Below, in pieces: positions 32,064 to 60,012 of a stretch of DNA of 64,000 bases (its first letter is position 1; each line of letters opens with the position of its first letter). Made by a program: the position numbers and the translations under genes. The stretch comes from a virus, in IMG/VR virus record IMGVR_UViG_3300020201_000015, positions 1 to 64,000 of that record; one strand, 5' to 3'. Below the pieces are notes generated by a model. It did not search any database and was not told the DNA's origin. It saw only the letters and a program-made list of their open reading frames with translations.

Positions 32064-32198
32064 GAGGAGGCGCTCGCGCTGAACGGTTGCTGGGGGATGC
32101 GGCGGCGGGATGATCTGGTCATGGGTTTTCCTTCGCAGATGCCGTGGTGGCCCAGAGCACTGCGCGCCGGCAGATGCCGGCGCGCAGTGCTCATGAGG

Positions 32199-32987: not shown

Positions 32988-32993
32988 GTTCCG

Positions 32994-33995: not shown

Positions 33996-34613
33996 TTGCC
34001 CACCTGCTCGGCCTGAACAGGCGCCCGACGACAATCGTCTTCGGCCTGCGCGCCCGGGGAGTGTTTTTCAATAATGGTCATTGCTAGCCTCGTTGGAATG
34101 TCACCGCAGCTGTCGCGCAGCTCAGCAGCCTCGCGCGAGACCTGGAAGTTGCGCAGGCGCAGGTGCTGGTTGTCGGCGCGCAAGGCGACCACCTCGTCGC
34201 GCAGGTCGGCGAGCTCGCGGCGCGCATCGTCGCGGGCGGCGCACGCGGCGATGAGGGCCCGGCCTGTCTGGTGGCGGGCGACATCCAACACGGCGACGCG
34301 CTCGCGAGCCGACCAGACGAGCATGCCGAGGGCTACGACCGCGACAGCTAGGAGGACGATTGCGACGATCATGGCTGACCTGCTTCGAGCTTGGCCAAGG
34401 ATCGGAGCATCTCGTCGGCGTACAGTCGGATGAGAAACGGGACGCTGCGCTCAGCCGCAGCCTTCGCCATCTCCGGGTCCTGCGTGTCGAGTCGATCTGT
34501 GATGCCGGCCGCGTTGCAGCTCATCGTGTAGCCGATCGGGTTCTTCGTCAGATTCACGCGGATGGGCCCAGCGGACGCGAGAAAGCCATCTTGGGCAGGA
34601 CGCCAGTCGAACA

Positions 34614-35339
34614 TCACGCCACCCTTCCGCCCTTGAAGAGCTTCAGTTGACCATTGCGCTCGGCGCGCTTCGCGGCGGCGAGAAGGCGCTCCTCACGGGG
34701 CGACAGGAGACTGTGATGGTTGTTCTCGATCGCCTCGAGCGACTCGATCGTCTTGGCCAGCAGGTGCATCGACACGGCCCACGGCGTGGACGCAGTGCGA
34801 ATCTTGCGGACGTAGCCGATGACCTTCGCCTTCGAGTAGCCGCGGGCGTCGCAGACTCGGCGGATCGCCTGGCGAAGCTCGGCCATTGCGGCAGGGTCGT
34901 CGCCTATGCGCGCGGACGAGACGATGGTCTCGTCGAGTTGGGGTCGCTGGGCGCGGACGGCTTCGAGTTCGCCGCGGCGAAGCGACAGGAACAGCTTGAT
35001 GAGCGAGACGCGCAAGGCGCTCGCTTGCGCGGTGCGCATCAGTGCCACGAGGTTGTAGGCCTGACCCTCGTTGAGCATGGGCTCCACGATGATGTCCTCG
35101 CGGAACTTGGTGGACCCCGGGATTTCGGTGCGCGATACCGTCTCGCGCACGCTAATCGCGCCGTGCGACTCCAGTTCCGCGCGGTTGCGGTCGATGAGCG
35201 GCTTGACGTCGCGCGCGCGAAGCATGCCGCCGCGAGTCGCCACCTGGAAGGCGCCAATGCGGCGCTCGCTGTCGATGGTCTCAACGGTCCAGCCGTCGAC
35301 CCGAACGATCTCCGCCCCGCCATTGCCGGCGGCGGTCAT
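34614..35339 (-). CDS. Antirepressor-like DNA-binding protein
   Basis: R.RD...LI.RN..EL, LNE.QA......RT..A...R..LI. Confidence 0.6.
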   Translation of the reverse strand: MTAAGNGGAEIVRVDGWTVETIDSERRIGAFQVATRGGMLRARDVKPLIDRNRAELESHGAISVRETVSRTEIPGSTKFREDIIVEPMLNEGQAYNLVALMRTAQASALRVSLIKLFLSLRRGELEAVRAQRPQLDETIVSSARIGDDPAAMAELRQAIRRVCDARGYSKAKVIGYVRKIRTASTPWAVSMHLLAKTIESLEAIENNHHSLLSPREERLLAAAKRAERNGQLKLFKGGRVA

Positions 35340-35647
35340 GCGACCTCGCTGGGATTGGTCCCGGACTTGGCGACGGCCCATCGTTCCTTTGCCTGCGTGA
35401 TCGTAGGCTCAGCGAGCGAAGCGACCGCGTCGACGGCCAGGTCCCCGGCGATGTATGAGTCGAGCAGCGCCGTCGGGATGCCGATGCCCTTCGCGAACCG
35501 CAACCGAGCATCGTGCCCGCTCAGGCGGCGCCGCCCCCTTTCAAGGTGCACCACGTCCACCCGCGTGGACTGGATCAGCAGTCCCAGCTCCTCCTGTGTG
35601 AGCTTCAGCTGCTTGCGCAGCGCCCGGATTCGATCGGCGAGTTCCAT
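35336..35647 (-). CDS. XRE/Cro-like HTH regulator
   Basis: IRALRKQLKLTQEELG......V..LERG. Confidence 0.85.
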   Translation of the reverse strand: MELADRIRALRKQLKLTQEELGLLIQSTRVDVVHLERGRRRLSGHDARLRFAKGIGIPTALLDSYIAGDLAVDAVASLAEPTITQAKERWAVAKSGTNPSEVA

Positions 35648-36520: not shown

Positions 36521-36600
36521 TAGTTCTTGCACTGGGCACGTACCGGGTGCATACTCCTCTTGCCACCGAGAGACACGGACCCCCAAAGGACACCGACCCC
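36521..36600 (+). promoter_or_regulatory. Repeated promoter and leader, copy 1
   Basis: TTGCAC(36527)-N17-CATACT-CCTCTTGCCACC..GACACGGACC..AAGGAC..ATG. Confidence 0.8.
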
Positions 36601-36888
36601 ATGACCACCTCGAAGATCGTCACCTTCACCCAGGCCGCCGCTATCCGCGCCATTCGCCTCCGTCGGGCTCGTCTGCTTGCGAGGGTCGACGCCGCTCACG
36701 TCGATCGCAACATTGAGATCGTAGTCTTCGGCGTACGCGCCGTCGTCGACATCGGCGTCGACACGATCCGGGTCTGGGACGCCGTCGCCGAGGACTACGT
36801 CCTCGACATCTCCGGGGCGGTCAGCGCCTGGGCGCGACCGCGCATCCTCGAAGCGGCGCGCCGAGAAGCGGCGCGCCGAGCCTCCTGA
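36601..36888 (+). CDS. Small early protein
   Basis: ATG directly after the repeated leader and RBS. Confidence 0.65.
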   Translation: MTTSKIVTFTQAAAIRAIRLRRARLLARVDAAHVDRNIEIVVFGVRAVVDIGVDTIRVWDAVAEDYVLDISGAVSAWARPRILEAARREAARRAS

Positions 36889-44910: not shown

Positions 44911-45500
44911 AAACCAGGCCGATCTTGTTCAGCGGACCGATGGTTCGAGCTTTGTTGGCAGGGTCGAAGACCCAGACGCGCCGGCTCGTGAAGGCGCGCG
45001 CAGCCCCATACGGCGCAGCTGGCGACCGCCTCTACGTGCGCGAGACCTGGTGCGAATGGGCCAGTCGCGAAGCGCGGTACCGCGCCGACTTTAAGCCTCG
45101 CTATGGCGCGCACGAACGCGACATGCCCGGCATGATCGAGCGGGTCGAGCAATGGAAGCCGTCGATCTTCATGCCGCGGTGGGCATCGCGCATCCTCCTC
45201 GATGTCACGTCGGTGCGAGTCGAGAAGCTGCAAGCAATCACCGAGGAGGACGCGCGCGCAGAGGGCCTCACGAGGCTCAGCAAGGACGGCGGAAGGACCT
45301 GGAAGTGGGGCCTCGCAGACCGAGACGGCTTGCCCGGTACCGACGACGACGGCATGGAGTGGCAGGACTGGGACGTCGATGCGCGACGCCCTTATGCCAA
45401 GCTCTGGGATCGGATCAACGGCGACCGCGCGCCGTGGGAGTCCGACCCGATGGTCTGGGTCATCGGCTTTCGGCGGGCCGAAGCGAAGGAGGCGAAGTGA
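44907..45500 (+). CDS. ASCH/PUA-like phage protein
   Basis: PILFSGPMVRALL.GSKTQTRR, GDRLYVRETW, PSIFMPRWASRI.L, W..DP.VWVI.F. Confidence 0.85.
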   Translation: MKTRPILFSGPMVRALLAGSKTQTRRLVKARAAPYGAAGDRLYVRETWCEWASREARYRADFKPRYGAHERDMPGMIERVEQWKPSIFMPRWASRILLDVTSVRVEKLQAITEEDARAEGLTRLSKDGGRTWKWGLADRDGLPGTDDDGMEWQDWDVDARRPYAKLWDRINGDRAPWESDPMVWVIGFRRAEAKEAK

Positions 45501-46537
45501 TGGACTACGACGATCACGAGCAGTACTCGCCGAGGTACGCCTCGGACCAGGCCTACTGGCGAGGCGTGAAGGCCACTCAGTTCCTTCATCTGGCAGCTGG
45601 CTCACCGCTCCCGCATGACGCCGAGGGCGGCGACATCCCGCCCAAGGCGCAGCCCGGTAGCAGCTGCGCATCGTGCGGCGCGGTCGCCATGTATCGCCTC
45701 GACCAGTCGATATCTGACAACTTCACCACGATGAAGAACAACTCCAGGGCATGGCCAGTGGGCGGCGACTCGATCTGCGCAGCGTGCCTTTGGTGCTGCC
45801 GCTCGCTCGCGCTTCGATGCGGGCTGTTCTTCGCTCGCCTACCCGACGATCGTGGGCGCGGTGGGATCTGGTTCACGCCCGTCCGTCCGCTACCAGGATG
45901 GGAGAATCCGAAACCCGGCGCCACGGAAACGTGGCCCGTCATGGGTCGCCCGGACCCGCTCGCGGCGCTGCTCGCCCCGCCTCCGGCCCCGTTCGTTGCA
46001 GGGTTCCCTCTCTATGGCATCGACCACGGCGGAGAGGCGAACAGCCAGCGCGTGGTGTGGCAGTGGACCAACGAGGACGGGACGCAGCGGAGGCACGTGC
46101 CGGGCATGTCCGAGAAGATGAAGCTCCAAAAGGACGGCACGAAGAAGCTCGAGACCGTCGGGCCGCTCATCAAGATCCAGAGCAAGCACACCGCGCTCTA
46201 CTGCCGCATCTCCGGGTCCTCGGAGCGCTACCACCTTCAGGTCGACGACGCCCTCGATGTGATGGTCGACGTCCCGCTGTGGCGCTCGCTCCTGTCGTTT
46301 GCCGAGCCTCTGCTGGATGACCTTCGCGGCGCCGGCGTCGGCGCGCAGGACGCCCGCGCATCTCTCGTGTCGCTCAAGCCTCCGGCGGGCGCGCCGATAT
46401 CTCTCTTGTCGACTTGGAGCGCGCGCGTAGCGCCATTCGTTAGGCACGCGTCCGCTTCGTGGTGGAGTCGCGTGTTCGTCGCACTGATGCCGATGCCTGA
46501 TCTCGTGATCCAACCCAAGAAAGACCGTGCAACATGA
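45500..46537 (+). CDS. csf1: Type IV CRISPR-Cas large subunit Csf1 (Cas8-like)
   Basis: CASCG...SDNFT...ICAAC Zn finger, LLAPPPAPF, SKH; first gene of the RAMP operon. Confidence 0.75.
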   Translation: MDYDDHEQYSPRYASDQAYWRGVKATQFLHLAAGSPLPHDAEGGDIPPKAQPGSSCASCGAVAMYRLDQSISDNFTTMKNNSRAWPVGGDSICAACLWCCRSLALRCGLFFARLPDDRGRGGIWFTPVRPLPGWENPKPGATETWPVMGRPDPLAALLAPPPAPFVAGFPLYGIDHGGEANSQRVVWQWTNEDGTQRRHVPGMSEKMKLQKDGTKKLETVGPLIKIQSKHTALYCRISGSSERYHLQVDDALDVMVDVPLWRSLLSFAEPLLDDLRGAGVGAQDARASLVSLKPPAGAPISLLSTWSARVAPFVRHASASWWSRVFVALMPMPDLVIQPKKDRAT

Positions 46538-48042
46538 CCACCGTTCGGGATATCGAGATCGCCCGCGCCCGCGCTAGCTACCTGTTCCGCGCGTTCTGGA
46601 AGCGCATCGAGTGGGAGTCTCTCGGGAAGGACCGTCGACGAGGTATCACCAAGGAGGCGCAGGAGGCGCTGTGGCCGATCGCGCTCTCGTCGCGGTCGAC
46701 GCTCGAGGTGTGCCGCGCCTTCGCGACGCGCTTCGAGGTCCAGCTGTCAGGTACCGAGTACGACGCGCCTCCGTACGCTTGGATTCACAAGAGTTTCATC
46801 GCCGATGGCACGCCAAGTGAAGCGCGGGCGAACATGCCGCCGGACCACGTCGCTGTGCGATGGGACTTCCTCGCGCGCACGATTGACTTCGCCGCGCTGC
46901 GGCTCGTCGTGCATGAGAACCCGGCGCTGATCATCACGTTCGCCGCGATGGATCCGATCGACGGCGAGGCAGATCTGTTTCCACTGCCCGATGACGAGGG
47001 TGCGGACGGCGCGCACTGGGCCGCGCCGCTCCCCGAGCGGATGATCTCGCCGCGCGTGTTCCGCGCCTGCTGGACCACGCTCTCGCCGATGTTTCATGGC
47101 GCCGACGAGAAGAGCGGCAACGTGCTCACGTTCCGCCGCGAGAAGCGCGTGGACCCGCACACTGGGGCGATCGATCTCGTGCCGTTCATCTCTGGCAACG
47201 CGTTCCGCGGGCAGCTTCGCGACCGGCTCTTCGGTCGGATGCTGATGTTGCTCGGGATGAAGCCGACCGACCTGCCGCCGGCGCGAGCGCATGCGCTCTT
47301 CTCCGGCGGCGCGATCGACGCAGGCGCAGATGGCGGCAAGGCAGACGTGACGGCTCGTCGCGCAGCCAGGTCGCTCGCCCCGGCGTGGGATCTCATCGCT
47401 GGATGCATCGACCAGCAGATCATGGAGGGCGTGCTGCGCGTCCACGACGCACACCTTGTCTGCCGCGAGAACGCATGGCTACTCCACGCGATGCTGTCTC
47501 CGACGCTGCCAGACGGCTCTTCGATGCCGCTCGACACCTTCCGCGCCGCGCTCAAGCCGGCTGACGACCTGACGCAATTGCGGCTCGGGACTCGTCACGC
47601 CCACCGCGACTTCGACGCCGCCGACGGCATCCAGATGTTGTGGAACACGGAGGGCATCCTGCCGGGGTCGCAGATGGTCCACTCGCTTCAGGTACACGGC
47701 ATGGCTGGTGTTTCCGAGCTGACTCTGTCGTGCCTCGCTGACGTGCTCGCGGACTTTCGCGATGACGCCTTCGTCGGCGCGCAGACGGCCAGAGGGTACG
47801 GGCGGATCGCGTTCGACCCGTATCGATCGCTCGATGTCGAACTGCCTTCGCCAGACGTCTACAGGCAATTCCTGCTGGAGAAGGCAGACGAGATCAAGGC
47901 TTGGCTCATGGGCGGCAATGGCGGGACACAGGTCGTCGCGGCGGGCGCGTCGACCGGGAGGCGCAGCAAGAAGAGCGCGGTCGAGGTCGTCACGGATTCG
48001 ATCGTCACAGAGTCCGCCTCGCTGCAAGGCGGGCTGTTCTGA
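46534..48042 (+). CDS. csf2: Csf2 (Cas7) backbone with an N-terminal Cas11-like helical domain
   Basis: LSPMFHG, VPFISGNAFRGQLR, LFSGG, QM....E....G, G...ARGYG; extra ~170 aa at the N-terminus. Confidence 0.9.
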   Translation: MTTVRDIEIARARASYLFRAFWKRIEWESLGKDRRRGITKEAQEALWPIALSSRSTLEVCRAFATRFEVQLSGTEYDAPPYAWIHKSFIADGTPSEARANMPPDHVAVRWDFLARTIDFAALRLVVHENPALIITFAAMDPIDGEADLFPLPDDEGADGAHWAAPLPERMISPRVFRACWTTLSPMFHGADEKSGNVLTFRREKRVDPHTGAIDLVPFISGNAFRGQLRDRLFGRMLMLLGMKPTDLPPARAHALFSGGAIDAGADGGKADVTARRAARSLAPAWDLIAGCIDQQIMEGVLRVHDAHLVCRENAWLLHAMLSPTLPDGSSMPLDTFRAALKPADDLTQLRLGTRHAHRDFDAADGIQMLWNTEGILPGSQMVHSLQVHGMAGVSELTLSCLADVLADFRDDAFVGAQTARGYGRIAFDPYRSLDVELPSPDVYRQFLLEKADEIKAWLMGGNGGTQVVAAGASTGRRSKKSAVEVVTDSIVTESASLQGGLF

Positions 48043-48806
48043 TGTCCTGGCTCCGGCACAACCTGGGGTGGCTCCAACGCGCCGGCGAGCGATGGGGCTG
48101 CGCCCACGCGGAGCCGCTGCGCTTGCGGGCGTGGATGGCTTCTCCGGTCATCTGGGACGCGTACGATGGGCTGCGACTTGAGGGCGCTCTTCAGTACGCG
48201 GTAGTCGCGCTCGAGTCTGGCAGCGTGCCTAGCGACGTCTTCGCCGATGCGCCGCGGGACATCGCCGTCGACATCCCGATCCCGATCGTCGACGTGGAGA
48301 TAGGCGGGAGGCGGATCGCGTGCGCCTCGGTCGCCTTGGCTCCGCCATGCGCCATCGAGACGGTGCGATTCATCCGCCGGCGAGCGCGAGTCGAGGCGCT
48401 TGCTGTCGGCAAGGTGCTGATCTCGGGCGGTCCGTACAAGTCGACGAACATCCCCAAGGCGACGGTGACGACGCCGTGGGTCGACTTCTTCGTGCGCGGA
48501 GATCGGGCTCGCCTGGCGACGCTGCTCAAGGACGTCTCCTCGCTGTCCGCCTCTCGCGCAGGTGGGCTCGGCGTCGTGCTCGGGTGGCAGATCGACGATG
48601 ACCCGGACGACCGGTCTTTGGTCTACCGCGACGCGCCGCAGCGCACGCTTCCGCTGGTCTCGGACGGCGGCGAGTGGGACCTGCAACGGTTCGACCCGAC
48701 GACATACGAGATCCGCGAGGCGACGACGCGGGCGCCGTACTGGCATCAGCGGAGCAGGGCGGAGTGCCTGACGCCTGTGCCCCGCAGAGAGGCGGCGGCA
48801 GCGTGA
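48042..48806 (+). CDS. csf3: Csf3 (Cas5-like RAMP)
   Basis: PLRL.A....P, L.LEGAL, GPYK, GD...L..LL, R..G.G.V..W, RAPYW. Confidence 0.85.
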   Translation: MSWLRHNLGWLQRAGERWGCAHAEPLRLRAWMASPVIWDAYDGLRLEGALQYAVVALESGSVPSDVFADAPRDIAVDIPIPIVDVEIGGRRIACASVALAPPCAIETVRFIRRRARVEALAVGKVLISGGPYKSTNIPKATVTTPWVDFFVRGDRARLATLLKDVSSLSASRAGGLGVVLGWQIDDDPDDRSLVYRDAPQRTLPLVSDGGEWDLQRFDPTTYEIREATTRAPYWHQRSRAECLTPVPRREAAAA

Positions 48807-49558
48807 CGGGTGCCTTCGACCTCCGTGAGCTGCCGTCCTTCGCGTCGGATCCGTGGTTCGCTCCGCCTCCCGCGTTCGACTCGTGGATGCCTGGCGGGGC
48901 ATGTGAGCTGCGCATGTCGCAGTCGGCAACGCTGACCCAGGTGCATGGCGCAGTGTCCGCTGTGCTCGGGGACAGCGGAGTCGACCACGGCCGGCGGTTC
49001 TCTCCGTTTGCGCTCGACGTCGACGGTCTCCGGAGGGTGAGGCTGATTCTACACACCGAAGAGGCCGCGGCGGTCATCGCGCACGGACGGTTTCAGACCA
49101 TGGTAGGCGACCGGCGGGCGACTCTGAGCGTAGGGCCACTGCAACGCATCCGGGCGCCAGTGGTCCATGGACTCGGGCCGCGCAGGGTCAGAGTCGAAGC
49201 GCTCACGCCGGTGCTGATCCGGCATCGCGTGACCGACGAAACGAGGCCGAGCGGCAAGGTCACGCTGACCTATCGGAGCGGCCACACCGACCAGATCGCG
49301 AATGCGGTTGGTGTGCAATTTTGCGAGCGCCTCGGGCTCCCATACGTCGAGTTGCTCCGAATGGAACACGTCGACTCGAGCACGTCACCTGCGGTGGTGA
49401 ACCTCGGGCGCAAGATCAAAGGAATAGCCGGATGGGTCGGAACGGTCGACCTGCGTACGAACGGGGTCGGCGAGTGGCTGCTGCGCGCGGCCGAGATCAT
49501 GGGGCTCGGCGGACGGACCGCCTACGGCCTTGGCAGGGTGAGGGTCACGCGATGCTAG
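48803..49558 (+). CDS. cas6: Cas6-family endoribonuclease
   Basis: TPV..R, GWVG, C-terminal Gly-rich loop GLGGRTAYGLGRV. Confidence 0.8.
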   Translation: MTGAFDLRELPSFASDPWFAPPPAFDSWMPGGACELRMSQSATLTQVHGAVSAVLGDSGVDHGRRFSPFALDVDGLRRVRLILHTEEAAAVIAHGRFQTMVGDRRATLSVGPLQRIRAPVVHGLGPRRVRVEALTPVLIRHRVTDETRPSGKVTLTYRSGHTDQIANAVGVQFCERLGLPYVELLRMEHVDSSTSPAVVNLGRKIKGIAGWVGTVDLRTNGVGEWLLRAAEIMGLGGRTAYGLGRVRVTRC

Positions 49559-49945: not shown

Positions 49946-50548
49946 GTGAGTCATAGCACCAGTTACCGAGTGCAAGTCGGCGACATACAGAACGGCTCCC
50001 CGATCGACTTGCTCATGCGCGGCGAGAAGGCCGACATCGTCTACTCGGACCCGCCATGGGGACAGGGGAACCTGACCTACTGGCGGACCCACAACGGAGA
50101 GCGCGAGCGAGTCTCATGGGTCGACTTCATTGGCACGTTTTGCGCTGCCGTTGTCGCTCACGCGAAGCCCGGCGCCCACGTGTTCGTGGAGATGGGCGAG
50201 CGATGGGTCGACGAGATGGCAGCGATATTTGAGGCGCTAGGCCTGCCAGAGTCTCAGCGCTGGCGATGCTTCTACAGCAATCCGAAGTTGCCCAACGTCC
50301 TGTGGTACTCGGGACCAGGCACCACTGCCAATCCGTCTGGCATGAGCGGGGTGGCGATGACGGCTCACGTGCTGCGCTCGGTCGCAACAGTCGGCGCTCT
50401 CGTGCTCGATCCGTGTTGCGGCAAGGGCATGACCGGCCGCACCGCGATGCGCCTCGGGATGCGCTTCGCTGGCAACGAGCTAAACCCGAAGCGACTCGCC
50501 GTGACCCAGTCGTGGTGCGAGCGCTACGTGGCGGGCAAGACGCGATGA
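49946..50548 (+). CDS. Small amino-methyltransferase (beta-class order, N4C/N6A type)
   Basis: DIVYSDPPW before VLDPCCGKG; little room for a TRD. Confidence 0.8.
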   Translation: MSHSTSYRVQVGDIQNGSPIDLLMRGEKADIVYSDPPWGQGNLTYWRTHNGERERVSWVDFIGTFCAAVVAHAKPGAHVFVEMGERWVDEMAAIFEALGLPESQRWRCFYSNPKLPNVLWYSGPGTTANPSGMSGVAMTAHVLRSVATVGALVLDPCCGKGMTGRTAMRLGMRFAGNELNPKRLAVTQSWCERYVAGKTR

Positions 50549-51417
50549 TCCGCGTCGGCTGCGACGCACCTTCCAAGCTTACAACGGTTGCGTCGACCAT
50601 CGCCAGCACGGGCGCACGCAAGGTGGTAGCGATCTCGCCAGCCAGGTTCCGCCTTGAGCTACCCGACTGCGGGGCCCTGGTCGAGCACATCGAATGGGCC
50701 GAGGTCATACAGTACAAGCACTTCTACCGCCTCGTGCAAGAGACCGACTCGTCGACCCTAGTCGTCGTCAACGAGTGCCTGCGAACGCAGAGCAGGCACG
50801 ACCTGACGTACAACTGCATCCGTCACTTCCTCAACCAGACGCCGCACCAGGTCATCTTCCAGCGGTTCCCGATCATCGACTCTCTCGACGATCTCATGAC
50901 GCTGGTCGACTTCGACACGCGCAGTAGGTGGAAGCGCGAGCCATTCGACCGCGCGATGCTCGCGGACATCGACATCGCGGTGGAGCGGCGCGACGTCACG
51001 CTAAGTGCCGTGGACGTCGAGACCGACGAGGCTACGCGCGTCGCCTACGGGCGCGAGAAGCGCCGACTGCTTGACGGCATCGGCCTCAAGGACCCGCACA
51101 CGATCCCTCGCAACCTGCACCTGATGGCTGGCAAGTCGAAGATGGCAGTGGCCGCCGCCGACCAGCTCTACGTCGGCCGCAACGCCCGCCTTGGCATTCG
51201 CGGGCTCGAGACATATCGCGACGTCGCCACGACAGAGCCGCGGGACGTCTTCGAGTTCTGTCACAACGTGATCGACTTCTCTGACTTTCTCGCCGTCACC
51301 GGGCAGAGCGTCGTTCGCGCGCTCGTCTCCGATCTTCGAGTTGATCGCTGGTACTTCGACCGCTTCACCGCTTGGGCACGGAGGGTCAGCGATGCCTACT
51401 CAGCGATACTCGGGTGA
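50545..51417 (+). CDS. Conserved-looking protein, possibly a degenerate SF2 helicase domain
   Basis: LVVVNEC resembles Walker B but no Walker A is seen; coupled within the operon. Confidence 0.45.
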   Translation: MIRVGCDAPSKLTTVASTIASTGARKVVAISPARFRLELPDCGALVEHIEWAEVIQYKHFYRLVQETDSSTLVVVNECLRTQSRHDLTYNCIRHFLNQTPHQVIFQRFPIIDSLDDLMTLVDFDTRSRWKREPFDRAMLADIDIAVERRDVTLSAVDVETDEATRVAYGREKRRLLDGIGLKDPHTIPRNLHLMAGKSKMAVAAADQLYVGRNARLGIRGLETYRDVATTEPRDVFEFCHNVIDFSDFLAVTGQSVVRALVSDLRVDRWYFDRFTAWARRVSDAYSAILG

Positions 51418-52519
51418 GACCGTTCTTGAGGCCGCGCGTAGACGCATGGCGTTCGTGTTCGACTCCTTCCAGGAGATCATCGTTTCGATCAGCGGCGGGA
51501 AGGACTCCACCGTCCTCGCTCACCTCGCTCTCGTAGAGGCGCATCGCCGAGGGCGGCGCGTCGGGATGTTCTTCCTGGACGAGGAGGTCATGTACCAGGA
51601 GAGCGTCGAGCAAGTCGACTACCTGATGTCGCTCTACCCGGAGAACACCAAGCGCATGTGGCTCCAGGTGCCTTTCCGCCTGACCAACGCGACGTCCGTG
51701 GAGGCCGGTCAGCTCGACTGCTGGGCGCCGGGCGAACACAAGGTGTGGATGCGCCCGAAGCGGGCCGACGCGGTCAAGGCGAAGCCTTGGGACATCGCCA
51801 CCGAGACCGTAGCGTGCGCGGCTAAGGGATTCGGCTTCTACGACGCCATCGCCAACTTCGAGCGGACCCACCACGGAGCCGCGTTTCTCGTTGGGCTGCG
51901 CGCGGCTGGCGAGTCGCCCAACCGGTGGCGCGCCGTCGTGAAGAACCCGATCGACGTCGCCGGCAAGTCGGTCTTCTGGGGCACCAAGAAGCGCGACAAT
52001 TCCGTTCTCTACCCGGTCTTTGACTGGAACCACCACGACGTGTGGCGGTACATCCACGACGAGAAGATCCGCTACTCCAAGGTGTACGACTGGCAGTTTC
52101 GCAAGGGCTACGCGCTCAACCAGATGCGCGTGTCGTCGCTTATTCACGAGCGCGCCTTCAAGTCGATCTGCGACTTGCCAGAGTTCGAGCCCAAGACGTT
52201 CGAGCGGCTCAGTCGACGGATCAAGGGCATCTCCATGGCCCAAGAGACCGGCAAGAGCGCCAAGATGTTCGCCTGTCGGAAGCTGCCGAAGAACTTCCGA
52301 TCGTGGCGAACCTACCGCGACTTTCTGTTTGCTACGCACTCGGACCAGGCGCGGCGGCCCATCTTCGAGCGGCGCTTCGCGAAGCAGCTCGACAACGAAC
52401 ACGTGGCCCGGCAGCAATGCCGGCAGCTCATCCTGAACGACTACGAGAACAACCTTCCCGTCGACAACAAGCCAGACCCGCGAGACGAGACGATCCGCTA
52501 CTACGAGGAGGTCCTGTGA
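51392..52519 (+). CDS. ibrA: PAPS-reductase-family PP-loop protein (IbrA-like)
   Basis: SISGGKDST, FLDEE, LVGLRA.ES.NRW, YPVFDW...DVW, MRVS. Confidence 0.8.
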   Translation: MPTQRYSGETVLEAARRRMAFVFDSFQEIIVSISGGKDSTVLAHLALVEAHRRGRRVGMFFLDEEVMYQESVEQVDYLMSLYPENTKRMWLQVPFRLTNATSVEAGQLDCWAPGEHKVWMRPKRADAVKAKPWDIATETVACAAKGFGFYDAIANFERTHHGAAFLVGLRAAGESPNRWRAVVKNPIDVAGKSVFWGTKKRDNSVLYPVFDWNHHDVWRYIHDEKIRYSKVYDWQFRKGYALNQMRVSSLIHERAFKSICDLPEFEPKTFERLSRRIKGISMAQETGKSAKMFACRKLPKNFRSWRTYRDFLFATHSDQARRPIFERRFAKQLDNEHVARQQCRQLILNDYENNLPVDNKPDPRDETIRYYEEVL

Positions 52520-53142
52520 CGAAACGACGAGAAGCGTCCGTGCTGAGAATCGACACCGCAGAACAGGGACTCGCCGCAGTGGCATCGCGGTCCGTGGAGT
52601 ACGTCACGGCCGCATCCGGGAAGCGCGTCCCTGTGCCATGCATGTCGACGTGGCTGGTGAGCCCGGCGATGGTGGTGGCCAATGGGTACAACCCGAACCA
52701 CGTACCAGAGGAGAAGATGAAGCTGCTTCGGCAGAGCATCCTCGATAACGGGTTTTGCTTCCCCATCGTCACGATATGGGACGCCGAGCAGGAAAAGTTC
52801 ATCATCGTCGACGGCTTCCACCGAAGTCTCGTCGCGAGCGGCGAGTGGCTCGGGCTCGACTACGTGCCGATCGTGGTGCTCGACCACGGGCCGCGGCAGC
52901 GCATGGCGGCCACGGTGCAATTCAACAAGGCGCGGGGCGTCCACCAGGTGGACCTCGACGCCGAGGTGATTCGCGCGCTCATCGAGCAGGGCATGTCCGA
53001 AGACGAGATCTCGACCCATCTTGGAATCGATCTGGAGACCATCCATCGGTACAAGCAGGTGACTGGCGTGGCCGCGCTGTTCGCCAAGGCCGACTACTCG
53101 CGAGCATGGGAGATGGTCGACGATGACGTCGTCAGCCCGTGA
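52516..53142 (+). CDS. ibrB: ParB/Srx-fold protein with HTH (IbrB-like)
   Basis: AN.YNPN.V, SI..NGF..PIV, IVDGFHR, ATVQFNKARG.H. Confidence 0.85.
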   Translation: MTKRREASVLRIDTAEQGLAAVASRSVEYVTAASGKRVPVPCMSTWLVSPAMVVANGYNPNHVPEEKMKLLRQSILDNGFCFPIVTIWDAEQEKFIIVDGFHRSLVASGEWLGLDYVPIVVLDHGPRQRMAATVQFNKARGVHQVDLDAEVIRALIEQGMSEDEISTHLGIDLETIHRYKQVTGVAALFAKADYSRAWEMVDDDVVSP

Positions 53143-53947
53143 GCCGCGACTATCCGCGGACGACGTCCGGGCGTGGGACATCTGGCGCAGGGCTGCGCTG
53201 GTCCACGCTCGGTCGCAGCGACACCTGCGCGCTGTTGACAAGGCTCGGCGCATCGTCGCCGACGGGCTCGAGAAGGCTCCGCGTGCGGCGCTGATGTGGA
53301 GCGGAGGCAAGGACTCCACCGCGATGACGCACTTGGTTTGCGTCGACATGGGCGCCGGCGTCGACGTGATCAGCGAGAAGGACGACCTCGACTACCCAGG
53401 CGAGGTCGAGTACGTGACGGCGCTTGCGGAAGCCTGGGGCTGCAAGCTTCGTATCGTCACGCCAGGGCAGTCGCCGGTGGCTTGGATGGATGCGCACGCG
53501 CACGAGCTTGACGCTGGCGACGACATCCACTCGCGCGCGGCCGGGCTTAGCAAGGCGTGCTTCTATGCGCTAGTCGAGGCCGCTACGACGTCGTACGACG
53601 GCATCTTGCTAGGGCTCCGGCAGGAGGAGAGCCACGGCCGACGGATGAACGCCGCGACGCACGGGGCGTGCTACCGGCGCAAGTCTGGGCAGTGGACGAT
53701 CGCGCCGCTCACCTACTGGAGCGGACTCGACGTGTTCGCGTACCTTCTCTCGCGCGACATCGATCCACTGCACGTCTACCGATGCATCGCGTTCATGCAC
53801 GCGCGCGAGCCATGGCGACTGCGCAAGTCGTGGTGGATACCAGGCGCGAGCTCGCGGCACGGAGGGACAGCCTGGCTCCGCCACTACTACCCGACCCTGT
53901 TTCGCCGCCTGCTCCAGTGGATCCCATCTGAGCGGTCGTTTACCTAG
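53123..53947 (+). CDS. CysH-like PAPS-reductase-family protein (type IV-B-associated type)
   Basis: WSGGKDST, LGLRQEES.GR, PL..WS..DVFAY, WLRHYYP. Confidence 0.85.
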   Translation: MTSSAREPRLSADDVRAWDIWRRAALVHARSQRHLRAVDKARRIVADGLEKAPRAALMWSGGKDSTAMTHLVCVDMGAGVDVISEKDDLDYPGEVEYVTALAEAWGCKLRIVTPGQSPVAWMDAHAHELDAGDDIHSRAAGLSKACFYALVEAATTSYDGILLGLRQEESHGRRMNAATHGACYRRKSGQWTIAPLTYWSGLDVFAYLLSRDIDPLHVYRCIAFMHAREPWRLRKSWWIPGASSRHGGTAWLRHYYPTLFRRLLQWIPSERSFT

Positions 53948-53990
53948 CCTTTCCGAGGCCTTGCGGGCGAGTCGAGGAAAGATCGTCGAA

Positions 53991-54067
53991 ACACCTTGCA
54001 CGGGGTACGTGCCGGGTGCATACTCCTCTTGCCACCGAGACACGGACCCCCCGAAAGGACCCCGACC
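53991..54067 (+). promoter_or_regulatory. Repeated promoter and leader, copy 2
   Basis: TTGCAC(53996)-N17-CATACT plus the same leader. Confidence 0.8.
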
Positions 54068-54510
54068 ATGAAGACCAAGGTAACCATCTCACAACGCGCC
54101 GACATCGAGGCCGCTCGCGTCTCGTCGACAGACGCCACGTTTGTGGCCGTGTGCGAGGCCGCGCTAGGCGGCCCGATGGCGCCCAACCCGATGGGGGCAG
54201 GCAAGGTCGGAGCAAAGGGCGCGATCGCGTACCTGCGATCCATTAGGGTGATCGAGGTGGCGTCGTGAGCGAGTACACTTTTGGTCTACGTGGCGCGACT
54301 GAGACGCGCGATCTTTGCCGCCCCAAAAACCGGGCAAAGATCCGCAGGATTGAAACGCTGCACGGCGTCACCTGGACGTCGTACGAAGGACCGGAGAAGC
54401 GCCTCAGGTCCTGGTTCTCCGGGCCGAACAAGGGGGAGCCGTTCGACCGCTCGCTCGCGGCTGACGTGCTAGCCAGCATGGTGGCCGCAGGTCTCGACTC
54501 CACGACCTGA

Positions 54511-54602
54511 GCCTCGACCCTCCGTGTCTGCCTGCCTCCACGAGGCTGGCGGACGCGGGCGCTGAGCCCGACCTGACACGGACCTAACAAGGACCCCGAC
54601 CC
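54511..54602 (+). repeat. Structured intergenic repeat, copy A
   Basis: CCGTGTCTGCC-T-GCCTC-CAC-GAGGC-T-GGCGGACGCGG then GCGCTGAGCCCGAC and the leader. Confidence 0.85.
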
Positions 54603-55139
54603 ATGACCACATCGAAGACCGCCGCCGCCGCCAACACCCTCGCACTCGTGGCGCATGCGCGCCGCGTCGCCAGTATCGGATCGATGATCCGGATGACGGC
54701 TAAGCGCTGCGCCCAGGAGGCTCAGTGGGCGCTCGGCAGGGGCGACATCTACGCCTATCACACGCTGCTCGATGCGGAGACCGCGATTCGCACTCCCCTG
54801 CGCATGGTGTTCTTGCAGCCGAGGCCCGCGCCGATCGCGGCGCCGGTCAAGAAGGCCGCGATGAGCGATGCCGCTGCACTCGCGGCTGCCGTGGCGGCCG
54901 CCGAGGCGATGCCGGAGGAGCGGGAGCGCGTCGCTGTCGACGCGGCCGCCGAGCCGATGGTCCGCCGGATCATCGAGGCGGCGGCGCTGACGAGCGCGGT
55001 GTGGTGGCCCGAGAGCGAAGAAGAGGACGGCGCCCGCACGGTGGAGCTCGACCTCATTCAGGCGCGCCGCCTGACCCACGCACTCGGTGCCGCAGGCGTC
55101 TCCTACTCCTACAGCGAGGGCATGTAGAAAGATCTGCGA

Positions 55140-55214
55140 TAGTTCTTGCACTGGGTACGCGCCCGGTGCATACTCCTCTTGCCACCTGACACGGACCACG
55201 AAGGACCCCGACCC
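55140..55214 (+). promoter_or_regulatory. Repeated promoter and leader, copy 3
   Basis: TTGCAC(55146)-N17-CATACT plus the same leader. Confidence 0.8.
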
Positions 55215-55681
55215 ATGAACGCAATGATCGCACTCGCAAAAATCTCCGACATGCACATCCGGGCGCTGCACGCCGACGCGGTGCACGGCAGGGCTGCGAC
55301 CCTCGCACTGGTGGGGCCCGACTCAGGGCCCGAAGCGGACGTCTGGTACGAAGCCGCTTGCGCCGTAGTGAAGGTCTACAGCGCGGAAATCTTCCGGCGC
55401 CATATCGTCCGCGCGGAAGCCGCGGTGGCGACGTGACCGCCGTCGCCACGCACACCGCAGAAGACTGGGTATCGTCGATCGTCCCGATCTGTTGGGTCAA
55501 TGGTGAGGCGCACTCGACTCGGCAAGTCGACGCTGGTCGCGAGGTCTACGTGGCGGTCCTTCGTGGTGCCAGCACGCGACCGTCTTACGCCTTCTCGCGG
55601 CGCGACCTGGCCCAAACCATGCTTGGAACTTGGGCCGGCGATGTGCTGAGCGTCACCCTGCGCTCGGATGTGGCGGCCTGA

Positions 55682-55776
55682 GGCCTCGCCTTCCGTGTCT
55701 GCCTGCCTCCTCGGAGTCTGGTAGACGCGGGCGCCGAGCCCGACAGACACGGACCCAACCAAGGACCACCGACCCC
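55682..55776 (+). repeat. Structured intergenic repeat, copy B
   Basis: Same stem, with GGTAGACGCGG as the 3' arm. Confidence 0.85.
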
Positions 55777-57426
55777 ATGACCATCTCGACTGCCGCAGCC
55801 CTCATCGCCCGATCCATCTCGCACACGGAGATCGCGTCCGCTACCTGGTCGACGGAACTCGCAGCCGCACTCGACATCGAGTGCGACGACGGCGTCGACG
55901 CCAGCGACACCGTCACGGAGTACTGGGGCGTGACGCTCGACGGCGACGAGTGGCGCGTCCACCTGACCGGCGCGCGCTCGGTCGAGGTGGCGTCGTGAGC
56001 GCGGCGCTCGTCGCCTCGGTCGACGCGATCGCGGACAGGCGCGTCGAGGCCCTCACGGCAGCCCTCCAGCGCCTCGGCTGGAAGTGCCAGCAGGCAGACC
56101 TCGACCTCGCCGCGAGGACGGCGAGGATTGCCTTCAAGCACCACACGGGCAGGGTCGTCACCCTGGATGCTGACGGGCTGGGGCGCGTCTCGCTGACGCG
56201 GGAGCAGCACTCGTCGTGCCCCGTGCTGGTGGGTCGCCGTGGCGACCGGCAGAGGGCAGAGCGTCACGTCGTCGAGTTCATCGGACGCACGCGGCACAGC
56301 GGCATCCGCTCCGCCATGCGGAGCCTGGCCGACTACCTGGCCGACAACTCCGGCTGCGACCGTGCCCTGGCGCGCGCGCCGCTGGCGGGGTTGCTCTCGT
56401 CCGAGGTGTCGTCGTGACCGCCGGCGACCGCATCGAGGTCGACGTCTACTTGCACCTGTGCCCCAGGCACGAGGGCGCCGGGTGGTGCCCCGAGTACGAT
56501 GACTGTCAGAACGCTCCGGGCATCTGGGGCACAGACTACCCCGAGCGGAGCTGCGAGGGCGGCGCTCCCCACCTCGGGGTGCTTCTCGAGGTCGGAGCGG
56601 GCCCGACTGCCGGCCGCGTCCGCATCCAGCTTGACGGCGACGCGCAGCCAGAATGGCGCGACATCGAGCGCGTCTACCCGGCCCAGGCGGCGTCGTGAGC
56701 GCCGCGGACGACGCGTCGGAGCGCGTGCGCGCCATGATGGCCCAGGGGACGCCGTACGTGTGGACGGTCGAGGAGGCGCTGGCGCGACACGCCGAGAACT
56801 ACGGCTACGAGTCGGATTGGCCCCACTGCGAAGTGTACGAGGACCGCGGGCACCTACTCGCGGAGGTGTACCGCATCGGCGCCGTGAGCGCCCAGCTGGA
56901 GGCGCTGGTCCGAGCTGCGCTGCTCGCGTCGAGGAACCAGGGGGAGACATGGGGGAGCCGCGGCGGCAGCAGCTACTACAGCACCGAGGAGGACGTCGCG
57001 GTGGTGGATGCAGAGGCGAAGGCCGCCGCTGAGAAGGTCATGCGCGCGATCGCGAGCATCTCGTGAGCGCCAAGAAGTGCGGCGCGTTCTACGCCGACGC
57101 CGACGACGTGAGCGGGCCGTGCGCCCGAGCGTCTGGACACGACGGCAATCACGAGGACCTCCGCGGCGACGCCTGGGCGCAGGAGCGGACCGCGACGGCT
57201 CCGCCTGCCGTCAGCCCTGCCGAGGCGAAGGGCCGGTGCAAGTCATGAGCGGCGAGCGCGAGCAGCACTCGGCGGACTGGCAGCGCTTCATCTCTCGCCG
57301 CGAGAGCATGGTCGCAGCCGAGCAGTGGGAGGTGTGGAGCGACGGCATGCTTCAGGACAGCTGGCGCACGCGGTATCTCGCCCGCCTGCACATGCACTGG
57401 ATCAAGCTAGCAGCGGGGGTGGCGTC

Positions 57427-57616
57427 GTGAGCGGCAAGGTCGCAGACGACACGTCGCAGCGCTCGCGTTCGCGCGGGTCGTACCGCTACACGCTCACCAC
57501 CGACGTGGTCGAGTGGGTACGCGCAGAGGCGGCGCGCCGCCAGGTGTCGGCAAGCGAGGTGGTACAGGATGCGCTTGCGGAGGCGCGAGATCGGCTTATT
57601 CGAGGGGGGGGGGTAA
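57427..57616 (+). CDS. Ribbon-helix-helix-like regulator; end depends on a poly-G tract
   Basis: YTLT.DVVEWVRAEAARRQVSASEVVQDAL; as given it reads through to 58023. Confidence 0.55.
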
Positions 57617-57620
57617 CAAA

Positions 57621-57705
57621 CAGTTCTTGCATGGGGCACGTACCGGGTGCATACTCCTCTTGCCACCGAGAGACACGGACCCGGACCCCAAAGGACCCCG
57701 ACCTC
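57621..57705 (+). promoter_or_regulatory. Repeated promoter and leader, copy 4
   Basis: TTGCAT(57627)-N17-CATACT plus the same leader. Confidence 0.8.
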
Positions 57706-58023
57706 ATGAAGACGACGACGACCCACACGATCACCGAGCTTGGCGACTACGGCGCCCGCGTGCACCGCGGTACGTTCGAGGTCTTCTGCGCCGCCGGCAC
57801 CAGGCGCGCGGGTGGGGAGTGGGCGATCGTGTCCCGAGACGGGGAGACCAATACGGAGCCGACGGCGTCCGTCACGGACGGGCCGAAGGGGCCCATCCCC
57901 GGGCCCGTGCTCGCTTCTATCCGCGCGGCTCTCGTAGACCTTCCGCGCTCTGAGCATGAGGAGCGAGAGCGGATGCGACCACTGGTCATCGAAGCCATGT
58001 GGAAGCGCCGCGCGGCAGCCTGA

Positions 58024-58108
58024 GGCCTCGCCTTCCGTGTCCGCCCGCCTCATCGGAGGCTGGTAGACGCGGGCGCTGAGCCCGACCCCCGAAGAAGGAC
58101 TGACCCCC
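58024..58108 (+). repeat. Structured intergenic repeat, copy C
   Basis: Same stem; loop ATCG; shortened leader lacking GACACGGA. Confidence 0.85.
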
Positions 58109-59446
58109 ATGAAGACCGCGACTGCCGCCATCTCGAGCCCAGACCCCGCCACGGAGACCGTGGACCTGCGAGCTGAGGCGGTGCCGATTGCCACCCTCGT
58201 GCACGGCGACGAGCACGCACAGGTCCAGCGCGGCTACGTCTACCGGTGCAGCGCGGAGAGCGCTGATGCGAGCGAAGGCGTCGGGTATTTCGGGGACGAT
58301 TCCCCCCCGTGCGCGGCAGAGTACCTGTGCTGCGCAGACGCGAGCGAGGGCACCTACCTGGTGATCTCGACCGAGGCATCTGCCGATGACATCCACGTCG
58401 TGGACGGTTGGAATCTCGAACCGGCCGAAGATCTCGAGGTCGGCGAGGTCTTCGACGACGGGGTCTGGGTCGTCGTCGTCGTCAAGGCCCGGGGCCACCT
58501 CTGCACCGTCGCGGGGTCGCTGTGACCGCCCCCGTCGCCGAGCGCCACGACTGGGCGACCGACATGGGCCTGAGCGCCGAGGACATCGAGCCTCTCACGA
58601 CCGCGCACCTGTCGGCCGCGGAGATATGGCTCGCGTCTGCGTCGGAGCGGCTCCCTCCCTTCTCGGCGGTCCGCTACCGCGGTCCGACCGTTGGCTGGTC
58701 GCCTCACTCTGGACTGGTCGGGCGCGTCGACACCGGGCCCGTGCTCCTGCCGTGCGGGAACCCGGGCGAGCACAAACGCGAGCGCCCCATGGCCCTCGTC
58801 CGGTTCGCCGACGACCTCGGGGGTATCTACTGCGAGACGGACCGACTCGACGCCCTGGTGTCGGGCGCGCGCGTCTCGCGCGACATTGCCGACGGAGACG
58901 TCCAGCGTGGGCAACTCGTCACGGGGAACGTCGTGGCTCGCAAGCTCTACGGCTGCGGAGATCTCGAGCTTCACGCGCTCGTTTCGTGGGATGACGTCGA
59001 GACCTTGGGCGACGCACTCGACGGGGCGAGAGCATGGGAGCCGCTGCGGTTGCTGGCGTTCGAGGGGCGCTCATGAGCCTCGAATGCATCGACGGGCCCG
59101 ATGGATGCCGGGGCGCCGTGCAGGCCAGATGGCCGGGGTACGGGTCGGGCGCTTTCGTCCGATGCGAGCGCCACGGGGATGCACGCGTCGAGCGGGAGCA
59201 AGAGAACAGGCGCAAGTACTTCGGCCCCCAACCTTCTGACTTTTCGCCCGACGACGCGGGCGAGACTTGGAGCGAGTAGATGGATCCCACTGAAAACTGG
59301 AAACGGCAGGCTCTCGCCGCGGCGCAGATCGTCGCTCTCATCGATGCCGAAGGCGACCAGGGCGAGATCGCAGATCTCGCCAGCAGCCGTCAGCCGGCGC
59401 ACCTGGCGACATCGACCGCGAGCCGCCCGCTGGCCGAGGTGTCGCA

Positions 59447-59818
59447 GTGACGCCCGTGGCGTTCCGCGATCTGGCGATCGTCGCAATCGAGCGGCAGATC
59501 GCCGCAGGGTCGAGGCTCGTGTGGGATCGCTGGGGACTGCTCGGCGACGACGGCGCCCCGCTGTCGTGCGGATGCGCCGTCGCCCTGGTCATCCAGGACG
59601 CCGACCCCGCAGCGGCGCGAGAGGTCGTGCGAGATAGCTCATCCTTGGATGCCGACGATGTCCGAGTCGCCGCGGCCCACGCACTTGGGCTGACGCCGAA
59701 ACAGGTCGACCAGTTCATCGCCGGGTTCGACGGGCGCGGCGAATGCACCAGCTCATGGCACCTCGCCGGCATGGCCGTCGCGCATCGGTTCGCCTCTGTC
59801 CTGCTGGTGTCGCAGTGA
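59447..59818 (+). CDS. MTPE-family paralog 4
   Basis: MTPVAFRDLAIVAIERQIAAG...CGCA...F.AGFD. Confidence 0.7.
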   Translation: MTPVAFRDLAIVAIERQIAAGSRLVWDRWGLLGDDGAPLSCGCAVALVIQDADPAAAREVVRDSSSLDADDVRVAAAHALGLTPKQVDQFIAGFDGRGECTSSWHLAGMAVAHRFASVLLVSQ

Positions 59819-60012
59819 ACCGCGCCACCACTACGGAGCACGCGCGGACCAAGCCACGGGTGACCATCGTCCTGGCGCCCGACGTCCACGCGACCGGCAA
59901 GCGCCTTGCCGCGACCGATGGCAGGTCGCTCTCGTCGCTCATCGAGCGGCTCATCCTCGCGGCCGCGGACGCATCCAAGCCGGTCAAGGTGCCCCGTCCG
60001 CGCGGCAAATGA
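59815..60012 (+). CDS. Ribbon-helix-helix-like regulator
   Basis: RVTIVL..DV....KRLAA.DGRSLSSLIERLI. Confidence 0.65.
   Translation: MNRATTTEHARTKPRVTIVLAPDVHATGKRLAATDGRSLSSLIERLILAAADASKPVKVPRPRGK

Follow-up and report, generated by a model that had tools for sequence, protein, structure and literature searches.

Hairpin repeats between early genes of an uncultivated high-GC myovirus: candidate mRNA 3′-end elements and joints between gene cassettes

The PeSL (promoter-early stem-loop) elements of T4-type phages are short conserved cassettes in which a stem-loop is combined with an early promoter; they lie on either side of small variable genes and are described as points of homologous exchange between otherwise unrelated genes (PMC4122927; see also PMC2839356). 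The SAS/ESAS elements of Cluster K mycobacteriophages are described as imperfect 17-bp inverted repeats that lie upstream of a conserved ribosome binding site (RBS) motif, among non-structural genes and in one orientation; in the portion of the report that discusses ESAS, the authors favoured DNA-binding proteins as the partners (PMC3203893). SAS/ESAS are described in Cluster EF Microbacterium phages as well (PMC7302621). We found no functional study of SAS/ESAS in the literature. Here we describe a hairpin repeat with three copies in the first 64 kb (64,000 nucleotides, the window) of an 89,369-bp IMG/VR virus record, IMGVR_UViG_3300020201_000015, labelled G000. Judged by its sequence, the element can be filed with the PeSL/SAS/ESAS kind of phage regulatory and recombination cassette, in a new lineage.

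The feature is real and well delimited, and its most likely function appears to be an ordinary one. Our tentative reading, which we hold to be about an even bet, is that each copy is an intercistronic mRNA 3′-end hairpin that would attenuate transcription or stabilise the message and would double as a recombination joint, in the manner of PeSL and SAS/ESAS. Anatomy, strand bias, position and mosaic contexts were read directly from the DNA; 3′-end formation, differential expression and the recombination role are what we infer from them.

Anatomy and arrangement of the hairpin cassettes

The three copies (HP1, HP2 and HP3; Table 1) are 63-64 nt long, and the first base of each directly adjoins a TGA stop codon. 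The initial annotation had placed repeats of ~62 nt directly after stop codons at 54511, 55682 and 58024, which proved correct. The 21-nt core GACGCGGGCGCYGAGCCCGAC has three exact matches, where 0.05 would be expected by chance; a fourth match at 12590 on the minus strand, with three mismatches, was rejected as unrelated. BLAST of all 89,369 bp and a covariance model of the element, R1, both returned three copies in the whole record, with R1 scores of 83.8-85 bits and the next plus-strand match at 21.8 bits. In each copy the 17-nt arms form 11 pairs, one U.U or C.U mismatch and 5 pairs around a loop of 3-4 nt. HP2 has a C.U mismatch in the upper stem, and HP3 has a C.A mismatch within the 11-bp stem. 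The 3′ arm has 3 nt in common with a small hairpin, CGGGC-GCYGA-GCCCG. The annotated 11-bp stem, mismatch, 5-bp upper stem, loops (CAC, CTCG and ATCG) and overlapping small hairpin were all recovered, as was the absence of a U-tail: no T run follows any of the three copies, and a terminator scan did not list them. A long-hairpin fold can also be drawn, with ~22 pairs and 1x1 internal loops, in which the outer stem is built from the variable 5′ flank.

The plus-strand folds of HP1, HP2 and HP3 have energies of -34.2, -35.6 and -35.0 kcal/mol (z-scores in Table 1), and 0, 0 and 1 of 200 shuffled sequences folded equally well. On the minus strand, the z-scores were only -1.84, -1.82 and -1.50, and 9, 11 and 17 of 200 shuffles did as well. 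In the 17-nt arms of type A copies, two of the three non-Watson-Crick positions are U.G, which are mismatched on the minus strand. The asymmetry arises from conserved U.G pairs, which turn into A.C mismatches on the other strand. In the three window copies and in three full copies from metagenome contigs (see below) the element starts 0-3 nt after a TGA, with the main stem 8-11 nt after the stop, and an RBS and ATG come within the next 20-45 nt. From this strand-specific stability, the U.G pairs and the position between stop codon and RBS, the elements look like plus-strand, RNA-level, cis-acting elements between cistrons.

G000 has a second repeat family of four members (0 expected), which are promoter-like cassettes (TTGCAY-N17-CATACT) that carry a conserved leader. 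We consider this family decisive for our reading. The layout is P53996, two genes, HP1 and one gene, followed by P55146, two genes, HP2 and seven genes, and then by P57627, one gene, HP3 and more genes. Each hairpin lies 380-520 nt downstream of a promoter cassette, with one or two small genes between them, and none precedes a promoter in G000. The genes behind the hairpins (54603, 55777-57616, and 58109 onward) have no promoter of their own. HP1 and HP2 share leader sequence with the promoters: GACACGGACC has exactly six occurrences in G000, every one of them in a promoter- or hairpin-linked leader, and a half-site-like motif, GACRCGG, is repeated in the leaders. The promoter-cassette leader is made of two similar units, GACACGGACC and AAGGACCCCGACC, followed by ATG, and the promoter spacer is partly palindromic (TGCAC...GTGCA).

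In the mechanism that we propose, the unit is a stop codon, a strong hairpin and a standard leader with its RBS, and it would act in cis on the plus-strand early transcript. Messenger RNA 3′ ends would be created or protected by the joint action of the 17-bp hairpin and the small hairpin on its 3′ side, through U-tract-independent pausing or termination (attenuation), through a block to 3′-to-5′ exonucleases, or through both. Expression of the one or two small promoter-proximal genes would then be stronger or longer-lasting than that of the distal genes behind the hairpin, which would be reached by read-through and translated from the cassette's own leader. The hairpins would in this way partition the multi-promoter operon into promoter-proximal segments and distal genes. 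Since the cassette is nearly identical wherever it is found, the copies could also be homologous-recombination joints that allow related phages to exchange small gene cassettes.

Comparison with PeSL showed that the G000 hairpin and promoter cassettes likewise flank small open reading frames (ORFs), and that relatives carry them in shuffled contexts, with indels or replacements at the motif. However, terminator and promoter form one composite in PeSL, whereas hairpin and promoter are separate modules with one leader type in G000. The G000 hairpin also differs in having no U-tract, a high-GC host and no sequence similarity to PeSL, and its function is putative. The likeness to SAS/ESAS, as these are described, extends to the 17-nt arms, the spacers of 3-4 nt, a conserved AAGGACCCCGACC leader, the single (plus) strand and the early region. 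In two of seven leaders the G000 RBS (..AAAGGACCCC..) shares 10-11 of 13 bases with the Cluster EF SAS GGGAAAGGACCCC. In contrast to SAS/ESAS, for which spacers of mostly 4-13 nt are described, G000 has 3-4 nt, and a distance of 6-20 nt or more, which includes an extra leader unit, separates its hairpin from the RBS downstream. The departures from symmetry fit RNA pairing in G000, whereas the Cluster K authors, in the part of their report that bears on this, found that theirs did not. Upstream of the SAS sites in the AnnaSerena genome we found promoter-like sequence rather than a 17-bp inverted repeat, and nothing like the G000 hairpin.

Mosaic contexts and the case for a proposed 3′-end function

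A 24-nt pattern was scanned once against metagenome contigs (38 loci) and once against one genome per species (47 loci). Each of the 85 loci contained a single pattern match and none contained more. R1 recognised the full element in three of the 85 (L030, L039 and L040), all of them short metagenome contigs; the 47 genome loci yielded none. In L040 a 68-codon gene stands between two hairpins and a further gene follows the second; the contig begins inside a hairpin copy, and R1 also detected a truncated copy at the end of L040. In L030 the hairpin stands ahead of a homologue of gene 55777 (52% identity) and behind an unrelated gene, and in L039 it is joined to segments that are found at 54.5, 36.7, 59.4, 57.1 and 59.9 kb in G000. 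Because the type A stem-loop is identical apart from a loop base where the flanking genes have diverged (figures below), we take the hairpin for a conserved joint between shuffled cassettes. By sequence comparison, the hairpin is a reusable junction cassette that joins other genes in metagenome relatives. L030 also contains, at ~955-975 on its reverse strand, a leader hairpin, CCCGGC-GAAGA-GCCGGG, which follows a promoter-like region and precedes the first gene. The pentaloop of this hairpin, GAAGA, is of the type known from lambda boxB.

Searches of other collections returned no further copies. The IMG/VR scan gave one locus for the core 21-mer, within a coding region and without the 5′ arm, no locus for the promoter 19-mer, and four loci for the 5′ arm pattern, none with the 3′ arm; we regard these as chance matches. 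Against the 50,697 records of isolated phages, blastn of the hairpin produced seven chance matches (E >= 0.3). No Rfam family reached its gathering score; at E values up to 10 only miRNA-like chance matches appeared, and no CRISPR-DR model matched the hairpins. A protein-based search detected no relatives of gene 54603.

Cassette exchange is also seen at a different kind of junction. The module GAGGTGGCGTCGTGAGCGC, a Shine-Dalgarno sequence followed by a GTG start that overlaps a TGA stop, is the commonest junction at the other gene boundaries of the stretch; it occurs in the window at 54255, 55985, 56405, 56686 and 57418 and also in L039. A metagenome contig from run X6 lacks 56412-56694, which is exactly one gene between two GAGGTGGCGTCGTGAGCGC junctions. 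This gene loss shows the same cassette exchange at another junction module.

The copies are not canonical intrinsic terminators, being GC-rich hairpins without a U-tract. They do present a stable hairpin just past the stop codon on the transcribed strand, as is characteristic of a tail-less terminator or a 3′ stabiliser. The initial annotation had concluded from the missing U-tail that they are not terminators, an inference that fails for high-GC hosts: according to PMC2602773, poly-U is dispensable for terminators in Streptomyces, a statement for which Ingham 1995, on the early region of phiC31, is cited. The phiC31 elements are reportedly GC-rich stem-loops without poly-U in the early region of a high-GC phage; the candidates in G000 differ in their longer stems (17 bp and more) and in being almost identical repeats. 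U-tailed terminators are not in excess in G000, which has 4 and 9 where shuffled sequences give 6.9 and 6.1. The density of hairpins beyond the csf module (see below) was rejected as a signal, strong hairpins occurring at 1.8-4.3 per kb everywhere in GC-rich DNA.

We examined covariation in five distinct copies, three from G000 and two from metagenome contigs. Type A copies differ within the stem-loop only at the middle base of the triloop (CAC, CTC or CCC), and Y in the loop is the only variable base of the small hairpin; type B copies have additional differences at four stem or mismatch columns. In the long-hairpin model, one-sided changes that keep pairing account for six cells in four pairs and four cells are broken, for a covariation term of -0.04. 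The covariation score of the two-hairpin model, 0.050, was matched by 500 of 500 shuffles and lies below the shuffled mean. The differences between copies had been called structure-conserving in the initial annotation; with 0 compensatory changes in the five copies and covariation no better than in shuffles, this description is not supported. No variants were present inside the hairpins in contigs of four DNA runs.

Several observations weigh against a 3′-end function. Neither the 22 pairs of the long-hairpin model nor the 18 pairs of the two-hairpin model, in which 97.8% of cells are paired, contain a pair changed on both sides. The 37-nt type A stem-loop of HP1, L039 and L030 differs in the loop base only, next to homologous genes of 73-76% DNA identity. 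A generic structural element would be expected to drift and covary, so this near-invariance points to a sequence-specific partner or to recombinational homogenisation between co-infecting relatives. Similarly, the 15-nt 3′ tail GCGCYGAGCCCGACC is invariant and the 5′ flank variable, and a plain terminator or decay barrier does not explain the tail. The HP3 stem has an equilibrium probability of only 3% in one of four sequence contexts. The first gene after P36527 has its end at 36886 within CCTGAGCCTCG, a sequence that elsewhere forms the left flank of the cassette, and no hairpin is found there. Efficient termination would silence the promoter-less distal genes, so that only partial termination or a stabiliser fits. 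Moreover, the precedent for tail-less terminators may not apply to the host of G000; a relative, G005, has a U-tailed hairpin. No RNA run containing this phage DNA is listed, the eight listed runs all being DNA.

If the 3′-end reading is right, the locus would be a clean example of how an early region is constructed in an uncultivated high-GC myovirus. Its parts would be interchangeable expression modules (promoter plus leader, hairpin plus leader, and a junction that couples start and stop) that also serve as recombination joints, and the ideas developed for PeSL and SAS/ESAS would extend to a new lineage.

Alternative readings and the csf/Cas6 module

The initial annotation had taken the hairpins for RNA processing sites. 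In one version they would be sites for host RNase III, as in the early region of T7, which we consider unlikely. The enzyme would cut the irregular ~22-bp helix of the long-hairpin fold, leaving a protective hairpin upstream and a primary-like 5′ end downstream. A helix of ~22 pairs is long enough for RNase III, and the T7 sites are likewise conserved, mutually similar irregular hairpins between early cistrons that have no U-tails and whose cleavage gives the upstream message a hairpin at its 3′ end. Cutting close to the base would mimic a primary 5′ end, since the sequence CCGACC-TGACACGGACC... that follows HP1 and HP2 matches the sequence GCCACC-TGACACGGACC that follows the -10 element at 55184. 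However, the outer stem lies within ~11 nt of the stop, where it would be under the terminating ribosome, competes with the small hairpin and relies on the variable 5′ flank. Because the enzyme needs no particular sequence, its action would leave the near-invariance of the repeats unexplained; these putative sites are also far more GC-rich than those of T7, and no Rfam family matched them.

In the other version the hairpins would be substrates or binding sites of the phage's own Cas6, a low-probability but high-value link. The genes csf1, csf2, csf3 and Cas6 lie at 45152-49558 (PADLOC, E = 2e-7, 3e-43, 4e-26 and 1e-7), with Cas6 at 48803-49558 scoring 24.9 bits in Pfam against a cut-off of 25. 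As had been noted from the start, the hairpins stand just downstream; they begin 564 nt after the end of the module, on the same strand, so that they adjoin cas genes that include a Cas6-family endoribonuclease. A k-mer periodicity scan of G000 detected no CRISPR array. Neither a protein-based search nor PDB sequences yielded relatives of this Cas6. Within a 502-aa ORF, similarity to the Csf2 profile begins only around residue 177 (window 46534-47049).

It is conceivable, though quite improbable, that the hairpins are the missing RNA partner of this array-less type IV-B-like system. Cas6 would recognise the hairpin and its 3′ tail, and Csf3 and Csf2 would assemble over the adjacent ~45 nt of leader and RBS. 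The near-invariant sequence and invariant tail fit a sequence-specific RNA-binding protein, and with Cas6 acting at the main hairpin, a handle could be provided by the 15-nt tail. The handle of CRISPR repeats is typically 8 nt, located 3′ of the repeat hairpin, and array repeats measure ~23-55 nt and alternate in tandem with unique spacers of comparably short length. The G000 elements resemble the repeats of CRISPR or solitary-Cas6 loci in being direct repeats, in containing a small GC hairpin and in adjoining cas genes on the same strand. The annotation went further, proposing a dispersed array in which gene cassettes replace spacers. This proposal fits poorly: each unit measures 63 nt, and the starts of successive units are 1,171 and 2,342 nt apart with ORFs in between, so there is no tandem array. 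After the small hairpin the copies have only AC(C/A) in common rather than a conserved 8-nt handle.

We compared ten other viral records with a csf2 relative (G002-G011; the match in G004 is weak). A Cas6 homologue is present in G002, G008, G009 and G010, that is, in five of 11 records with G000. Co-occurrence with csf and Cas6, by which the annotation had proposed that its idea be judged, was not found, since R1 scored no more than 20 bits in all ten other records, including the four with Cas6. Given the array structure, unit size and co-occurrence, the element is not a CRISPR-type repeat. Unrelated TGA-hairpin-RBS-ATG repeats do occupy the same relative place downstream of the module in G009 and G010, both with Cas6. 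G009 has two copies 374 nt apart. G010, a complete record, has two post-stop hairpin families of two copies each in 32150-35300 on the minus strand (locus L128), interleaved with cassettes of a promoter (TTGACA-N17-AGTATG, with a palindromic spacer) and a leader that carries a hairpin and the RBS GGAAGGACACGACC(CC)ATG. One of the G010 hairpin copies directly precedes a promoter, in terminator-promoter order, and one family has two compensatory double changes in 14 pairs. Two unrelated families are awkward for one Cas6. We take the analogues chiefly as a sign that the early regions of these phages are built on a common grammar, although they keep the Cas6 idea in play as a low-probability reading.

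In an exploratory scan, hairpin-dense intergenic direct repeats just downstream of the module were seen in three of five Cas6-positive records (G000, G009 and G010) and in none of six Cas6-negative ones (one-sided Fisher p ~0.06 by our own arithmetic), a small count from a crude scan in which coding paralogues were removed post hoc by visual inspection. GC content, relatedness and the incompleteness of records all confound it, and it leaves out an inverted pair of strong hairpins in the Cas6-negative G003. Completeness is 21% for G002, 13% for G009, 61% for G008 and 54% for G003. The Cas6-positive G002 (36.7 kb at that completeness) had no short repeats. The only record with a true CRISPR array is the Cas6-negative G007 (csf1-3), where at least eight repeats of ~36 nt alternate with spacers of ~37 nt at 88634-89292 (locus L147), directly after a TnpB/Cas12-like ORF (C-terminal zinc finger, RuvC motif) and ~7.4 kb downstream of the csf/PAPS module. 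We rejected the G007 repeat as the origin of the hairpin: GAGGCCTCG and CGTGTCTG are common to both, but 51-89 of 2,233 sequence windows of G000 align equally well. The Cas6-negative G005 has two copies of a 25-nt repeat 74 nt apart at 46258-46356 (also in G006 at 24089), which could be a mini-array or duplicated sites.

Were the Cas6 link true, it would matter more than the reading we prefer, as there would be a defined candidate RNA beside a type IV-B-like module that carries Cas6. A CRISPR effector would then be a programmable switch of translation or mRNA stability acting on the phage's own gene cassettes, and G009 and G010 would do likewise with their own co-evolved hairpin families.

An improbable alternative is a DNA-level site, in which the imperfect 17-bp inverted repeat would be recognised by a phage DNA-binding protein, as an operator or roadblock, or by a recombinase. 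The architecture equals the description of ESAS in PMC3203893, as far as the excerpt gives it, with a short spacer and a position upstream of a conserved RBS motif. The sequence is near-invariant, the phage encodes a helix-turn-helix (HTH) protein at 35336-35647, and GACRCGG resembles a half-site. However, the departures from symmetry are U.G on the plus strand and mismatches on the minus strand, with a chance probability of 0.016-0.11 for three of four such positions when the flanking U.G is counted. The fold z-score is strand-specific, all copies lie in transcribed gaps and along transcription, and Pfam scans of 50 ORFs, a subset of all ORFs, revealed no integrase or recombinase. The strand asymmetry disfavours a site of the kind proposed for ESAS.

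Least probable is a nut- or put-like antitermination RNA, with the small hairpin (5-bp stem, pentaloop G-C-Y-G-A) as boxB or the double hairpin as in HK022 put, which would make polymerase processive for the promoter-less genes: the elements do follow the first small gene or genes of each promoter unit, as nutR follows cro, GCYGA could take a GNRA-like fold with its third and only variable base flipped out, and invariance fits a protein or RNA polymerase partner, but the idea rests on a resemblance to boxB, leaves the large hairpin without a role, and meets neither an N-like or Q-like protein (no PHROGs match among 10 small proteins) nor known downstream terminators.

Two further candidates were rejected. 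The first was an antisense switch in the leader, where GACACGGA is complementary to UCCGUGUC of the 5′ arm and duplexes reach -14 to -18 kcal/mol. In full-length folds the arm pairs with a leader at P < 0.02, compared with 0.97-1.0 for its own 3′ arm in HP1 and HP2; because of the low arm-leader value, and because GACACGGA is absent downstream in three of six hairpin copies, we did not treat the leader as a switch. The second was stop-codon read-through or a selenocysteine insertion sequence (SECIS); the frame after the TGA varies between copies beyond the loop and runs into stops.

Feature positions and surroundings of the locus

Table 1. Positions of hairpin copies, promoter-like cassettes and leaders in the window
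Feature	Position	Strand	Details
Promoter-like cassette + leader	36527..36603	+	Head of rightward early operon; first gene's unit precedes no hairpin
Promoter-like cassette + leader + ATG	53996..54070	+	TTGCAC-N17-CATACT; starts unit ending at HP1
HP1, type A	54511..54573	+	R1 85 bits; fold z -3.90; main stem 54522-54538 / 54542-54558, loop CAC; small hairpin 54556-54570; preceding TGA 54508-54510
Leader after HP1	54574..54605	+	GACACGGACC 54575-54584; RBS AAGGACCCCGACC; ATG 54603; same as promoter-cassette leader
Promoter-like cassette + leader	55146..55217	+	Starts unit ending at HP2
HP2, type B	55682..55745	+	R1 84.5 bits; fold z -3.59; 3′ arm GGTAGAC; main stem 55693-55730, loop CTCG; small hairpin 55728-55742; preceding TGA 55679-55681
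Leader after HP2	55746..55779	+	GACACGGACC 55746-55755; RBS AAGGACCACCGACC; ATG 55777
Promoter-like cassette + leader	57627..57708	+	Starts unit ending at HP3
HP3, type B	58024..58087	+	R1 83.8 bits; fold z -3.03; C.A mismatch; main stem 58035-58072, loop ATCG; small hairpin 58070-58084; preceding TGA 58021-58023
Short leader after HP3	58088..58111	+	RBS GAAGGACTGACC; ATG 58109; without GACACGG unit

G000 is an uncultivated high-GC myovirus (G+C 66.7%, completeness 94% by CheckV) that encodes a major capsid protein, a prohead protease and a Mu-like tail sheath. Since bases 17-133 are identical to 89248-89364, the record is essentially complete and is circular, or else circularly permuted or terminally redundant; a near-perfect palindrome occupies bases 1-58. 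No close relative was present among the 50,697 isolated-phage records (megablast of 50000-60000), in which Csf2 had no match either. Four contigs carry an identical PAPS-reductase, and one further relative has 74% identity.

Genes run leftward to ~36.3 kb and rightward from the promoter-like cassette at 36527. The rightward string includes recombination and replication genes (AAA_24, a PD-(D/E)XK nuclease and SSB), the csf1-3 and Cas6 genes and, up to 53947, a DNA methyltransferase, two genes of the PAPS-reductase family and a ParB-like gene. After 53947 comes the run of small genes, whose products had no PHROG match among the 10 small proteins searched. On the minus strand, the window encodes a protein with sigma-70 region 4 at 29265-29804 and an RNA ligase with a PHA02142 OB domain at 31050-32198.

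The two strongest hairpins of G000 lie elsewhere, at 32155-32192 and ~33585-33648. The former, where the RNA ligase and DUF6551 genes meet, is a 38-bp near-perfect palindrome of -51 kcal/mol in its 64-nt scan window, and the latter scores -45 kcal/mol. A run of 10 G at 57604-57613 leaves the gene at 57427 without a stop, so that it runs through the promoter into gene 57706. A contig from run X5 has nine G at this position, which brings the TAA at 57614 into frame; the run of 10 is either a homopolymer error or a variable tract. Finally, a coding repeat of ~100 nt (family D2) occurs in five diverged copies of 67-87% identity at the starts of neighbouring genes, at window positions 39038, 40221, 40616, 40969 and 59449.

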